IMG/VR virus record: IMGVR_UViG_648028025_000010 | DNA length: 64,000 nucleotides | Strand: one strand, 5' to 3' | Source: a virus | Taxonomy: Duplodnaviria > Heunggongvirae > Uroviricota > Caudoviricetes | Shown: piece after piece, positions 12,001 through 18,000 of the stretch | Layout of the letters: every line of letters starts with the position of its first letter | How positions within the stretch are numbered: position 1 is the first letter of the stretch | Made by a program: the position numbers

Positions 12001-15000
12001 AAATGTATTCCTGGTGCTAAATGGCCCGAAATTCAGGCAGAGATGCGCATCTGGAAAAAACGTCGCGAAGGTGAACGCAAGGAAACCGGAAAATACACGT
12101 CTGTTGTTGATCTCGCCCGCGCCAGAGCCAATCAACAGTACACTGAAAATTCAACAGGAAAAATCAGCCCGGTCATTGCTGCCATTCATCGCGAATACAA
12201 GCAGACATGGAAAACACTGGATGACGAACTGGCCTACGCTCTCTGGCCTGGTGATGTGGATGCCGGAAACATTGACGGCAGCATCCATCGCTGGGCAAAA
12301 AAAGAAGTTATCGACAACGACCGCGAAGACTGGAAGCGTATCTCGGCATCAATGCGCAAACAGCCTGATGCCCTTCGCTACGACCGCCAAACTATTTTTG
12401 GCCTTGTCCGTGAGCGTCCGATCGACATTCACAAAGATCCCGTAGCACTGAACAAATATATCTGCGAATACCTGACGACAAAGGGCGTGTTTGAGAATGA
12501 AGAAACAGACCTGGGCACTGTTGATGTTCTCCAGTCATCAGAAACACAAACTGATGCAGTGGAAACTGAGGTATCTGATATCCCAAAAAATGAAACCGCG
12601 CCGGAAGCTGAACCATCTGTAGAGCGTGAGGGGCCGTTCTATTTCCTCTTCGCAGATAAGGACGGAGAAAAATACGGTCGCGCAAACAAACTTTCTGGTC
12701 TGGATAAGGCACTGGCTGCTGGCGCCACTGAAATCACAAAAGAAGAATATTTTGCCCGAAAAAATGGCACATACACGGGCTTACCGCAAAATGTAGATAC
12801 CGCTGAAGATTCAGAACAACCAGAGCCGATAAAAGTTACCGCTGACGAAGTAAACAAAATTATGCAGGCAGCCAATATCAGCCAGCCTGACGCCGATAAG
12901 TTGCTTGCTGCATCACGTGGTGAATTTGTTGAAGGGATTAGTGACCCGAATGATCCGAAATGGGTTAAGGGGATCCAGACCCGCGATTCTGTGAACCAGA
13001 ACCAGCATGAATCGGAACGGAACTACCAAAAAGCGGAACAAAACAGTCCAAATGCGTTACAAAACGAGCCAGAAACGAAACAGCCTGAACCAGTGGCGCA
13101 ACAGGAAGTGGAAAAAGCCTGCACCGCCTGCGGTCAGACCGGCGGCGGCAACTGCCCTGATTGTGGCGCGGTGATGGGCGACGCAACATACCAAGAAACA
13201 TTCGATGAAGAGTATCAGGTTGAAGTTCAGGAAGATGATCCGGAGGAAATGGAAGGCGCTGAACATCCACACAAGGAGAACACTGGCGGCAATCAGCATC
13301 ACAATAGCGATAATGAAACTGGCGAGACGGCAGATCACCCAATTAAGGTGAACGGTCATCACGAAATCACATCCACCAGCAGGACGTGTGACCATCTAAT
13401 GATCGACCTTGAAACCATGGGAAAAAATCCTGATGCCCCGATCATCTCAATAGGTGCAATATTTTTCGATCCGCAAACCGGAGATATGGGACCGGAATTT
13501 AGTAAGACTATCGATCTGGAAACTGCTGGCGGAGTCATTGATCGGGACACCATTAAATGGTGGCTTAAGCAATCACGCGAAGCGCAATCTGCCATTATGA
13601 CCGATGAAATCCCGTTAGATGATGCACTGTTACAATTGCGGGAATTTATCGACGAAAACTCCGGTGAATTTTTTGTTCAGGTCTGGGGAAATGGAGCCAA
13701 CTTCGACAACACGATTTTGCGCCGTTCATACGAACGGCAGGGGATCCCCTGCCCGTGGCGTTACTACAACGATCGCGATGTACGCACAATCGTTGAGCTG
13801 GGGAAAGCCATAGACTTCGATGCCAGAACGGCTATTCCATTCGAAGGTGAGCGCCATAATGCACTTGATGACGCCCGTTACCAGGCAAAATACGTTTCAG
13901 TTATCTGGCAAAAACTGATCCCGAGTCAGGCTGATTCTTAATGTTCAACTGTCGCCGGTTGTGACTGGTATTCTGCAACCGGCGCTCGTCTGATGTAAGA
14001 GATAAAGAAATCGATGAGCGAAGTAATCATGATTGTCTCTCCCGGCAAATGGGTATCCGAAGAGCAGTTAATTGCGCTGAAAGGAATAAAAAAAGGTACG
14101 TTAAAAGTAAGCGACTCGTCAGAACCGTATTGATATTTACTGAGAGCTCAGATCAACTTTCCAGGGCAACAGATCGCGTACCCGGTTTGCCGGCCAGTCC
14201 TGGATATGTTCAATGACGTAACGCAGCCACTTTTCTGGCTCCACATTGTTCAGACGGCATGTGCCGATCAGCGAGTACAACACCGCCGCATGTTCACCAC
14301 CGCTGTCGGAACCCGCGAACATCCAGTTTTTCCGGCCTACGGCCACTCCCCGTAAGGCGTTCTCTGCGATGTTGTTGTCGATTTCCACCCAGCCATTACT
14401 GCAGTACACGTTCAGTGCATCCCACTGTTTCAGCAGGTATGCGAACGCTTTTGCCGTATCTGAGTGACGCGACAGTGTTTTCATCTGTTGCTGTATCCAG
14501 TCATACAGTGACTGCATCAGTGGCGCGGCTCTGGCTTTTCTTGCCGCCAGACGCTGTTCTGCTGAACAGCCCCGGACCTCTGCCTCGATGGCATACAGTT
14601 CACCGATACGCTGCAGGGCTTCCGTGGTGATGTAGGTGGGCGCTCTTGCATGCACATCGTGGATTTTTCTCCGGGCATGAGCCATACACGCGGCTTCCGT
14701 TATTCTGCCGGATTCGTATAACGCCCGGTAACCACCGTAAGCATCGGCCTGAAGCACACCGCTGTAACCGGCCAGGTGATTTTGTGGATGGATACCTTTC
14801 CGGTCCGGACTGTACGCGAACCAGACCGCCGGGGGCATCTGTGAACCGGCGTTACGGTCATCACGGACGTAGACCCACAGCCGGGCTGTCCGGGTTTTAC
14901 CGCTGCCCGGCTCCTGGACCGGGACGGGGATATCATCAGCATGGACTTTACCGGGCATCAGCACATACTGGCGCAGGACGTCATACAGCGGCTCCAGCAG

Positions 15001-18000
15001 TTCAGCAACAGCACCTGTCCAGCGCCCCAGTGTGGCACGGCTCAGCTCCACTCCCTGACGACGGTATATTTCTGACTGGCGGTATAACGGCAGATGGTCT
15101 GCATATTTCCCGGTGACAACATGGGCCAGAAGCCCCGCTCCGGCATAACTGCGTGCAATGGGTTTTGAAGGTACTGGTGCCTGCACGATATGGTCGCACC
15201 GGCAACAGGCCTGTTTCGGACGTTGTGTTTCGATAACCTTAAAGGCGCTGCTGATAAGCTCCAGTTGCTCTGACACATCACATCCCAGAGAACTGAGTTC
15301 ACCACCACAGGCAGGACAGCATTCCTCTTCCGGCCGGATAACCCGGGTTTCACGGGGAAGTGAGGCCGGTAACGGTTTACGGGCTGAAGACTGGCGCAGG
15401 GCGGATGGCAGTACCGGGTCATATTGCTCACCCAGCGTTTCCGCCATTTCTTCCTGAAGTGCGCTGATTCGCTCCTGTGCTTCCTGTATCTGCCGTTCGG
15501 TTTTTGCACGAAGTTTTTCTGAGCTTTTACCGAACTGCATACGTTGCAGTTTCGCAACCAGCGCCTTCAGCCGGTTGATTTCGGAAGCATAAGCCGCCAC
15601 CCGCTGTGAGAGCAGGCGGTTGTATTCAGCCATCTGGCGGATGGTGTCCTGTTGCGTCTGCAACAGTGCCCGCAGGCGGGCGTTCTCATGAGCAAGTGAG
15701 GTGTCCATATCCTCACTTTACAACGGGTTATATGCGGATTCCAGCGCGTTCCGTTCGTTTCGGGTGCTTCCAGTTGATACCTTCAAGAAGCATGGATAAC
15801 TGAGCCGGAGTAAGGTGCACCTTGCCGTCACGGGTGACTGGCCAGACGAAGCGGCCCCGCTCCAGGCGTTTGGTGAAGAGGCACAGTCCGTCACTGTCAG
15901 CCCACAACACTTTTATCTGGTCACCCCGGCGTCCGCGGAAGATGAACAGGTGTCCGGAGAACGGGTCATCCTTCAGGACGTTCTGAACTTTTGATGCCAG
16001 GCCGTTAAAGCCATTTCGCATATCGGTGATACCTGCAACCAGCCAGATACGCGAACCTGCAGGGAGAGATATCATCAGTGGCTGCTCCCTTTTATTTCGC
16101 GGATAAGTGTCTGTAATAACGCCGGCGTCAGTTTACCTTTAAGCCTGAGAGTTCCGGCCGGCAGAACCAGCTCACAACACAGACTGTCGGACGGTGTATT
16201 TATCTGCTCTGGTTCCTGTGCGGGGGCCGGGATTTTATTATCCGGCTCCGGCGTTAACGTCACGGGAAGCAGTGCCGGCATATTTTTTCCGGAAGGCAGC
16301 AGGCCACCTTTCCGGTATTGATGGCGCCAGTTGAAGAGCAGGTTATCGTTGATTCCGTTTTCCCGGGCGATCTGCGCCACACAGGCTCCGGGCTGCAGTG
16401 ACTGCTCCACTAAGGCGATTTTAAACTCATAAGGGAAGTTGGGCCGCCGGGGACGTTTTTTTACCACGGGGGCTTCGGATATAACGGTGCTTTCAGGACG
16501 TACGACTGGTACCGTGGAAAATTGTCCGTAAAGGCAGGCATCAAGTTCCTGCTCCGACATGCCTGCGGGCAAAGGCCACGAAAGGCCAGCTCTCCGAAAG
16601 CGCACGAACATACTACAAACTGTTGATTTTGGTACACCCAGGCGACGCCCGGCCACAACCCGGGGTAAATGTTCTTCAAAGTGAAGACGTAAAGCTTCAG
16701 TGATCCAGGTCCGGTGTTTCATACGATAGTGTCCATTAAAAATGATGGACATTATTTTTGTAGAGCCGGAGGAAACAGACCAGACGGTTTAAATGAGCCG
16801 GTTACCGTTAAAAAAGGCCCGGGAAAAATCGTTTATGGAAGGAAGGGAATATAAGCATGTCGCTCATGACGGTATGCCATGGGATAACAGTCCATGCTTT
16901 TATAACCTGGAAGAAATTGATCGCTGGATTGAGCGCCAGGCATCAGCGAGACCAAGACGTCATCTTACTTGACTAAAAGCCACACTAACTAATGAGAGAA
17001 GTTGAAATGAAATATCCGACAGGCGTGGAAAACCATGGAGGGAAATTACGTATCTGGTTTGTTTATAAAGGCGTAAGAGTCAGGGAAAATCTGGGGGTTC
17101 CTGACACATCAAAAAACAGGCGCGTTGCAGGTGAACTACGCTCCTCTGTTTGTTACGCAATAAAAACTGGTGTTTTCGACTATGCAAAACAGTTTCCCTC
17201 CTCACGCAATCTGGAAAAATTTGGTGAGGCCCGACAAGATTTAACCATAAAAGAACTGGCTGAAAAATTTTTGGCACTGAAAGAAACTGAAGTCGCCAAA
17301 ACATCACTCAACACATACCGTGCCGTCATCAAAAATATCCTGAGCATAATCGGTGAAAAAAATCTTGCCTCATCGATTAATAAAGAAAAATTACTGGAGG
17401 TTCGTAAAGAGCTACTGACTGGATACCAGATCCCCAAAAGTAACTATATTGTTACACAACCAGGGAGATCGGCTGTAACTGTAAATAATTACATGACAAA
17501 TCTTAACGCCGTGTTCCAGTTTGGTGTTGATAACGGTTACCTGGCAGATAATCCGTTTAAGGGGATCTCGCCATTAAAGGAATCAAGAACCATTCCGGAT
17601 CCTCTTTCGCGGGAGGAATTTATCCGTCTTATCGATGCGTGCAGAAATCAGCAAGCAAAAAATTTATGGTGTGTTTCTGTTTATACTGGCGTTCGCCCTG
17701 GTGAGCTGTGTGCACTTGGATGGGAGGACATAGATCTGAAAAATGGAACAATGATGATCAGGAGAAATTTAGCAAAAGACCGTTTCACGGTACCAAAAAC
17801 ACAGGCGGGAACCAATCGGGTCATTCATCTTATTAAGCCAGCAATCGACGCTCTCCGGAGTCAGATGACATTAACGAGACTGAGCAAAGAGCATATCATT
17901 GATGTTCACCTCAGAGAGTATGGCAGAACAGAAAAACAAAAATGCACCTTTGTTTTTCAACCTGAAGTGTCAGCGAGAGTAAAAAATTATGGTGACCATT

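Follow-up and report, generated by a model that had tools for sequence, protein, structure and literature searches.

ISCro1 interrupts a putative excisionase gene in a Qin-like prophage of an O26-type Escherichia coli genome

In an E. coli genome of O26 type, a short gene resembling a phage excisionase lies in two pieces at the end of a defective Qin-like prophage, raising the questions of which gene has been split, by what process, and with what consequence for the prophage. The locus was analysed within a 64,000-nucleotide (64-kb) stretch of DNA, hereafter the window. An earlier note on this stretch had proposed that the excisionase gene in a Qin-like prophage is divided by an IS66-type element, which is bounded by an 8-bp direct repeat. 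Table 1 collects the coordinates of the relevant features.

Table 1. Features of the interrupted excisionase locus and the adjoining prophage end (window coordinates).
Feature	Position	Strand	Evidence or remark
Excisionase 5' fragment, 31 codons	14014-14106	+	PF06806 profile positions 1-27; PGAP in RM8426, at matching coordinates: xisR, 'missing C-terminus'
Left target-site duplication, CGTTAAAA, 8 bp	14099-14106	.	Single copy in the empty allele
ISCro1 (IS66 family), complete, 2,699 bp	14107-16805	genes on -	Within the 64-kb window
ISCro1 terminal inverted repeats	14107-14132 and 16780-16805		
tnpC, IS66-family DDE transposase, 523 aa, intact	14137-15708	-	PF03050 2.5e-103; NF033517 2.4e-143
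tnpB, IS66 accessory protein, 115 aa	15728-16075	-	PF05717 4.7e-40; NF033819 5.2e-38
tnpA, IS66-like accessory protein, 225 aa	16075-16752	-	NF038385 1.1e-88; PF01527 HTH_Tnp_1; WP_001339397.1 in RM8426
Right target-site duplication, CGTTAAAA, 8 bp	16806-16813	.	
Excisionase 3' fragment, 52 codons + stop	16814-16972	+	PF06806 profile positions 25-69; PGAP: xisR, 'missing N-terminus'
Tyrosine integrase gene (int), same prophage, IS600-interrupted	17007-19554	+	Pfam Arm-DNA-bind_2 and truncated Phage_integrase match
IS600, 1,264 bp, in int	18025-19288		3-bp duplication AGA at 18022-18024 and 19289-19291
Attachment-site junction, ATGACTCTTGAAATCCATAA	19583-19602	.	Comparison with RM10386 and with the right-hand int-rspB junction of RM8426

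The inserted DNA was identified as a complete copy of ISCro1. The earlier note had bounded the IS66-type element at 14099-16813, and these limits hold, taking in both copies of the direct repeat with the element itself lying just inside them. Its approximate length of 2.7 kb and its three ORFs, likewise predicted, were confirmed: all three score well over the cut-offs of the TnpA, TnpB and DDE transposase models, and a Pfam profile search further assigned zinc-finger, leucine-zipper and C-terminal IS66 domains to the tnpC product. The tnpB start and the tnpA stop overlap by one shared base, and tnpC starts 19 bp past the end of tnpB. By the family rule of ISfinder, IS66 elements carry imperfect terminal inverted repeats that begin with GTAA. 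Both ends of the present element, GTAAGCGACTCGTCAGAACCGTATTG and (as the reverse complement) GTAACCGGCTCATTTAAACCGTCTGG, begin in this way and are identical at 18 of 26 positions, in agreement with the imperfect GTAA repeats described before. The full 2,699 bp displayed 100% nucleotide identity to copies annotated in RefSeq as 'IS66-like element ISCro1 family' on many E. coli chromosomes and plasmids. Every ORF and both ends are intact in the window's copy; the orthologous copy in strain RM10386 carries a 1-bp deletion, and its tnpC is frameshifted. The name ISCro1 was first given in Citrobacter rodentium ICC168. The element has expanded to 24 copies in C. rodentium (PMC3072379), and its insertion alters afa expression in ST131 (PMC8764528).

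The direct repeat on both sides of the element proved exact. CGTTAAAA occurs just twice in the window on either strand, each copy directly abutting the element, and the bases immediately outside the two copies differ (A versus C), so that the duplication is exactly 8 bp long. An 8-bp duplication is reported to be the hallmark of IS66 (PMC6778807). Perfect 8-bp duplications were also found at all 12 of the independent ISCro1 insertions that we mapped in other strains, a set that includes the same O26-type insertion in RM10386 and leaves a thirteenth locus, GPEC673, unscored, as a neighbouring ISEc8 confused its right boundary. The empty allele, which the earlier note had suggested seeking by PCR in related strains, was found by sequence comparison in 2,501 complete E. 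coli genomes, with one CGTTAAAA. Removal of the element and one repeat copy yields an 800-bp site that is a single unbroken stretch in other genomes (99.9% identity) and differs from strain 14EC047 by one base, far from the junction. Because this uninterrupted counterpart exists, the rejoined frame is not a product of chance.

Rejoining the two fragments restores an open frame with the motif EGREYKH. The earlier note had foreseen both frame and motif, but its length of 77 aa was not borne out: read from the first ATG the frame encodes 83 aa, and a start at the internal Met6 gives 78 aa. In the window as it stands, the ORF of the 5' fragment reads on into the element up to 14133 (39 aa), and an in-frame ATG within the IS end opens a chimeric 59-aa ORF at 16793-16972. 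An outward promoter in the IS end that would drive this chimeric ORF or int was rejected, as a sigma-70 consensus scan of 13850-17100 revealed no sigma-70-like site.

The rejoined protein is identical in sequence to RefSeq WP_000005552.1, an 'excisionase family protein', and matches Pfam PF06806 with 108 bits (E 1.6e-31), above the gathering score, over profile positions 1-69 of 70, the alignment spanning the junction. PF06806 was the sole Pfam family matching at E <= 0.01, and an NCBIfam search of the rejoined protein returned no model. A structure model of moderate confidence (pLDDT 74) predicts a winged-helix fold like that of the solved family member 2KVV, with EGREYKH following the second helix and preceding the first strand of the hairpin. 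PGAP names the fragments of the window's lineage xisR and, as judged from the profile match, the product of the interrupted gene belongs to the XisR/DUF1233 family and not to the lambda Xis family. The similarity to the lambda Xis core claimed in the earlier note did not survive comparison. BLASTP between lambda Xis and the rejoined protein gave no significant similarity (E 9.5), lambda Xis itself falls into another Pfam family (PF07825, 1.2e-41), and it was absent from the best 50 Foldseek matches to the model of the rejoined protein. The lambda Xis motif DGREYLFH sits in the 'wing'. On the modelled structure, the likeness to lambda Xis would be weak and limited to a shared winged-helix fold.

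The assignment to a Qin-like prophage was borne out by synteny with K-12 Qin (cspF, ydfT, ydfU, rem, hokD, relBE, flxA, dicB, ydfD, exo, xis, int). The prophage ends with exo, xis, int and att, in this order, with xis directly upstream of the tyrosine integrase gene on the same strand, and in the related strain RM10386 int is followed by rspB. In the window int is itself interrupted by a simple insertion of IS600: once IS600 and one AGA are removed, the gene encodes 426 aa, and its product is the same as the intact RM10386 integrase. At the attachment-site junction, 48 bp beyond the int stop, the sequence switches, and past it a second (nleC) prophage replaces the host DNA; ATGACTCTTGAAATCCATAA is also present at the int-to-rspB junction. 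The position of this switch shows tandem integration, with the nleC-carrying prophage lying at the same attachment site as the Qin-like prophage. The alternative that IS600 served as the recombination breakpoint that put nleC-phage DNA in place of rspB was rejected, because the 3-bp duplication is intact and rejoining int restores the RM10386 version exactly. Past the end of the window, the nleC prophage of the near-identical strain RM8426 has an intact xis-int pair that is almost the same; the neighbouring Xis differs at one residue (T83A), and the neighbouring integrase is intact, with 406 of 426 residues matching.

The same insertion, with both junctions, was identified in about 57-60 complete genomes, the majority O26:H11 and some O111:H8, and the NCBI pipeline annotation of these carriers already marks the split xisR and ISCro1. 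Since the insertion is shared by these genomes, it marks a lineage and is no recent event of one strain; ISCro1 dividing xisR is already known from public annotation, and the event is an ordinary one. The earlier description of the insertion as 'fairly recent' therefore needs restating: nothing in it has decayed, but the identical insertion is fixed in these 57-60 or so complete genomes of O26:H11 and its relatives, including O111:H8.

One reading that goes beyond a single event is that ISCro1 lands, or is retained, more often in the exo-xis-int-att region of Qin-like prophages than elsewhere, which we consider possible but rather doubtful. Other strains carry ISCro1, in one orientation or the other, at no fewer than 19 additional distinct sites from -640 to about +1994 bp relative to the O26 site, and in the further upstream 1.85 kb of exo no insertion in the orientation of the window's copy was found. 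A composite query centred on the site and spanning +/-1 kb detected insertions in the opposite orientation in 77 genomes; it may also join insertions a little outside this range (e.g. +1103, +1149). However, several ISCro1 insertions of independent origin also lie within or close to a 2-kb control region in the same prophage, ydfT-ydfU, and because of these the excess of sites amounts to about two- to three-fold only. Clonal descent inflates the genome counts, and the 12 mapped duplications share no target consensus beyond a tendency to A-rich ends. A strict hotspot was rejected on the basis of this control, leaving a modest enrichment. An orientation bias, suggested by the first eight sites, which all had one orientation, was an artefact of queries that joined same-strand pieces only, and it vanished once the opposite-orientation query was run. 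Together with the sites in other strains, the O26 insertion brings the independent ISCro1 events within about 2.6 kb of the exo-xis-int-att module of Qin-like prophages across E. coli to at least 20. The broader proposal, that this density exceeds that of other dispensable prophage DNA and that IS66-family elements are a recurrent agent of prophage fixation, is unlikely. Were it true, the cause might be a preference of ISCro1 for recombination modules, for example for bent or protein-bound att-proximal DNA, or alternatively repeated selection of hosts with prophage recombination genes knocked out.

It is quite improbable that the interrupted gene encoded some other small winged-helix regulator, or was already inert, and that its interruption was functionally silent. 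The title of PF06806 still reads 'putative excisionase', which, together with the NCBIfam result and the moderate confidence of the model, leaves this reading some room, as does the defective state of the prophage, with a partial ISEsa1 transposase in its replication region; K-12 Qin has itself lost xis (ydfE'-IS2E-intQ'). Yet the split gene occupies the canonical spot, with exo on one side and the tyrosine integrase gene on the other, all on the same strand, and the sequence of the rejoined protein has been kept intact across very many genomes. Moreover, XisR of K-12, a member of the same family, was shown experimentally to be an excisionase and to bind attR (PMC4632033).

Recombination between two ISCro1 copies, making the structure a deletion or inversion endpoint whose flanks merely resemble one gene, is refuted for this window to near certainty: although ISCro1 copies serve as recombination substrates in the O26 lineage, and in RM6927 this copy has its left junction ~491 kb away from its right one, on the opposite strand, a recombinant copy would show unlike flanking 8-mers, as in an IS66 example (PMC6778807), whereas here the same 8-mer stands on both sides and the joined flanks reproduce, with one mismatch in 800 bp, an allele that thousands of genomes carry unbroken.

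The origin of the locus is, with very little doubt, a simple transposition of ISCro1 into the excisionase gene of the Qin-like prophage, in a single ancestral O26:H11/O111:H8 event inherited since. The rejoined frame matches an excisionase and the flanking 8-mers are identical, the two points on which the earlier note had let its reading stand or fall. In the proposed mechanism, ISCro1 would have entered codon 31 of the gene, the DDE transposase TnpC, together with TnpA and TnpB as accessory proteins, would have cut the target with an 8-bp stagger, and repair of the staggered cuts would have doubled CGTTAAAA. This would have happened once, in the ancestor of the O26:H11/O111:H8 group.

Severing the winged-helix DNA-binding domain would have left the prophage without a recombination directionality factor of its own, and the 2.7-kb antisense insert would also be expected to cut int off from upstream early-promoter read-through, a polar effect. 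Given that xis is split and int is broken by IS600, we infer that neither recombination gene belonging to the Qin-like remnant has survived. By analogy with O157 Sakai, where prophages lacking a functional Xis were still excised (PMC2669165), excision may persist even after xis is lost. The neighbouring Xis and Int found in RM8426 could act in trans, and with a near-identical xis-int pair in the tandem nleC prophage, excision at the locus may depend on cross-talk between prophages. The insertion is further of practical use as a stable marker for O26:H11 and related EHEC strains. It offers a clean textbook case of an IS inactivating a prophage recombination gene, of little importance by itself.

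Compared with known systems, the window's element shares with the named ISCro1 the tnpA-tnpB-tnpC layout, the GTAA-type inverted repeats and the 8-bp duplication, with no detectable difference, albeit the copy in the mBio paper is given as 2,824 bp as against 2,699 bp here. The closest functional counterpart of the split gene is XisR (YdaQ) of the Rac prophage in E. coli K-12, which also belongs to PF06806 and is also encoded immediately upstream of a tyrosine integrase gene. Rac XisR has 71 aa as against 83 aa, with 26% identity over 62 residues to the rejoined protein, and its prophage lies in ttcA, whereas the Qin-like prophage lies next to rspB. Excision function was tested for the Rac protein only, and the rejoined protein is a putative excisionase. 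Small size, basic character, a gene position just upstream of int and, on the model, possibly a winged helix are shared with the Xis proteins of lambda and HK022 (PF07825). How prophages become fixed through mutation of their recombination genes is treated in PMC6379469, and disrupted int and non-functional xis genes have been catalogued among the Sakai prophages (PMC2669165). As in these 'grounded' or defective prophages of O157 Sakai and K-12, int or xis has been inactivated in the window's prophage, but here by clean, fully reversible-looking IS insertions with intact duplications and not by deletions.

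The element that interrupts the excisionase gene was identified as ISCro1, an IS66-family insertion sequence of 2,699 bp that is 100% identical over its entire length to RefSeq copies named 'IS66-like element ISCro1 family' and has already been named and described in the literature (PMC3072379; PMC8764528). The element is bounded on both sides by the 8-bp direct repeat CGTTAAAA, which occurs nowhere else on either strand of the window, and its termini (GTAAGCGACTCG... compared with the reverse complement GTAACCGGCTCA...) agree at 18 of 26 positions as inverted repeats. All three ORFs score far beyond the curated cut-offs of the IS66-family models, in agreement with the earlier note, which had described an IS66-family element with an intact 8-bp duplication. 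Among 5,426 complete E. coli genomes, ISCro1 matches were found in 3,017, on both chromosomes and plasmids, and 1,492 of these carry a copy spanning at least 80% of the element.

Coordinates of the insertions and associated features in the window
Feature	Position	Strand	Details
Direct repeat, two copies	14099-14106; 16806-16813		8 bp
ISCro1	14107-16805		2,699 bp
tnpA	16075-16752	minus	225 aa; NF038385 at 1.1e-88
tnpB	15728-16075	minus	115 aa; start overlaps tnpA stop; NF033819 at 5.2e-38; PF05717
tnpC	14137-15708	minus	523 aa; NF033517 at 2.4e-143; PF03050 and IS66 zinc-finger, leucine-zipper and C-terminal domains
xis parts joined in the reconstruction	14014-14106; 16814-16972		
Chimeric ORF, IS end and xis 3' half	16793-16972		59 aa
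Chimeric ORF, xis 5' half and IS	14014-14133		39 aa
Partial ISEsa1 (IS1202-like) transposase gene	5861-6931		
IS600 in int (int 17007-19554)	18025-19288		1,264 bp; 3-bp duplication AGA
Second lambdoid prophage	19583-64000		

Joining the two parts of xis, with ISCro1 and one repeat copy removed in silico, restored an ORF of 83 aa, or 78 aa with the start at Met6; the 77 aa proposed earlier is slightly off. In Pfam, the rejoined protein hits PF06806 ('putative excisionase, DUF1233'), aligning with profile positions 1-69 of 70 (E-value 1.6e-31), while the unjoined fragments cover complementary stretches of the profile (1-27 and 25-69), whose overlap at 25-27 corresponds to the duplicated 8 bp. 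With a reconstructed empty site of 800 bp as query against the complete E. coli genomes, the uninterrupted site was recovered in one stretch, with identity up to 99.9%, in 2,501 genomes, where exonuclease, 'excisionase family protein' and integrase are annotated. In 14EC047, a single base of the 800 differs, away from the junction, and the protein encoded there, WP_000005552.1, has exactly the reconstructed sequence, bearing out the claim that the rejoined frame matches an excisionase. The empty allele and the intact repeat therefore establish a simple IS66-type transposition with an undamaged 8-bp staggered-cut duplication of the target; the DNA-binding domain of the excisionase is physically bisected. 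The insertion also yields two chimeric ORFs, one that begins at an ATG within the IS end and continues into the 3' half of xis, and the other extending the 5' half of xis by 8 IS-encoded codons. A consensus scan of 13850-17100 revealed no sigma-70-like outward promoter for the former, and nothing promoter-like nearby.

Carriers of the insertion were counted with 300-bp queries spanning each ISCro1 junction. The left junction was found identical in about 60 genomes (63 records at ≥80% coverage minus three two-piece matches at other sites) and the right junction in about 57 (61 minus four). The carriers are chiefly O26:H11; O111:H8 and a few others make up the rest. In the carrier records, the NCBI pipeline annotates two xisR pseudogene pieces ('missing C-terminus' and 'missing N-terminus') on either side of ISCro1, and the split gene is an ordinary feature that public annotations already hold. 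In the related strain RM10386, the orthologous ISCro1 (locus L002, 15151-17848) measures 2,698 bp, one base having been lost, and the annotation marks its tnpC as frameshifted. The set of carriers and this lesion thus indicate that the insertion dates back far enough to mark a clade and that its decay has begun in some descendants. The term 'recent' fits the insertion only insofar as the duplication and, in the window, all three ORFs are undamaged. Overall, our analysis confirms the original observation and supports its interpretation with minor corrections.

Compared with the near-identical O26 strain RM8426, with whose annotation the coordinates coincide, the window shows 16 mismatches over the first 50 kb, all of them outside the region of interest. 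Eleven of the 16 are packed into ~500 bp (33621-34119) that take in the end of the tail gene gpG and the tail gene beside it, a clustering that suggests either prophage tail-gene conversion or that the window may derive from a sister strain. In RM6927 (NZ_CP074742.1), the left and right junctions of the same ISCro1 copy lie ~491 kb apart (3124848 and 2633638) on opposite strands, which implies a large inversion with one endpoint within ISCro1, and in strain 'War' the two are separated by 3,966 bp, which an IS600 within ISCro1 would explain.

The two-piece matches of the junction queries represent independent ISCro1 insertions elsewhere in the same region. By fetching loci (L007-L018) and using composite queries, we located at least 19 further ISCro1 sites. 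They occur in both orientations, range from -640 to about +1994 bp relative to the site shared by the O26 carriers (window position 14106) and occupy the 3' end of exo, xis, int and the att stretch of Qin-like prophages. A perfect 8-bp duplication was found at 12 of the 13 sequence-mapped loci, the thirteenth, GPEC673, being unscored since a neighbouring ISEc8 confused its right boundary; the 12 mapped duplications share no clear consensus. The 1.85 kb of exo lying farther upstream yielded no ISCro1 in the orientation of the window's copy. A single-orientation bias of the sites proved to be an artefact of query design, overturned by a composite search centred on ±1 kb of the site, which recovered opposite-orientation ISCro1 in 77 genomes, such counts being inflated by clonal descent. 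Several ISCro1 copies also lie in or near a control 2-kb ydfT-ydfU stretch (three and four genomes for the two orientations at ≥80% coverage; about eight to ten genomes with partial matches included), and the excess of sites in the exo-xis-int region is therefore modest; we consider a true regional preference of ISCro1, or selection, rather unlikely. The related IS66-family element ISEc8 lies directly 3' of the integrase gene, in the int-rspB interval, in a sizeable set of genomes from several O-serogroups, and in GPEC673 (locus L013, 5929-8241) it is present together with ISCro1 upstream of xis.

According to the RM8426 annotation and comparison with K-12 Qin, a defective Qin-like prophage occupies the left 19.6 kb of the window and carries cspF, ydfT, ydfU, rem, hokD, relBE, ydfV, flxA, ydfW, a partial ISEsa1 transposase gene and a cro/cI-like pair, followed by ydfA, dicB, ydfD, exo, xis and int. 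The partial transposase gene, annotated in the replication region, is further evidence of defectiveness. The int gene is itself interrupted by IS600, an arrangement found in only 4 of 5,426 genomes, and without IS600 the gene encodes a 426-aa integrase whose sequence equals that of the intact one of RM10386. The window departs from the int-rspB junction of RM10386 at 48 bases beyond the int stop, following ATGACTCTTGAAATCCATAA, and from this att junction onward it holds a second lambdoid prophage with DinI, nleC, tail fibres, J on to terminase, lysis genes and Q. In RM8426 (locus L004, 16567-18133), this prophage ends shortly past the window in an intact exo, xis and int of its own that adjoin rspB, and the same 20-bp sequence recurs at its junction with rspB. 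A single residue (T83A) separates its Xis from the reconstructed one, and its integrase matches at 406 of 426 residues. The nleC prophage is integrated in tandem at the attachment site of the Qin-like prophage, exactly at the att junction.

The Qin-like prophage has probably lost its own directionality factor, and ISCro1 may also exert a polar effect on int. Jointly, xis::ISCro1 and int::IS600 would have cost the prophage its self-directed excision, with the caveat that Sakai prophages without Xis were nevertheless excised (PMC2669165). The tandem neighbour could serve as a source of Xis and Int in trans.

The reconstructed protein belongs to the XisR/DUF1233 family and is not a lambda Xis, to whose core it had previously been likened. 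Lambda Xis belongs to PF07825 instead and shows no significant similarity to the reconstruction (BLASTP E-value 9.5). The sole solved structure reached by sequence is 2KVV, a Klebsiella 'putative excisionase', which was also retrieved by Foldseek with an AlphaFold2 model of the reconstruction (17 homologues, pLDDT 74; predicted order strand, helix, helix, hairpin, helix). Because of this family, BLASTP and structure evidence, the likeness of EGREYKH to the lambda Xis motif DGREYLFH is at best a fold-level echo. K-12 XisR, which in experiments bound attR and drove the excision of Rac (PMC4632033), is a PF06806 member too, with 26% identity to the reconstruction (E-value 2e-5). In K-12 Qin (NC_000913.3 1650078-1652708, locus L006), a ydfE pseudogene (the exo remnant), an IS2E remnant and an intQ pseudogene are found and xis is absent altogether, the equivalent module having been lost by a different IS-associated route than in the window's prophage.
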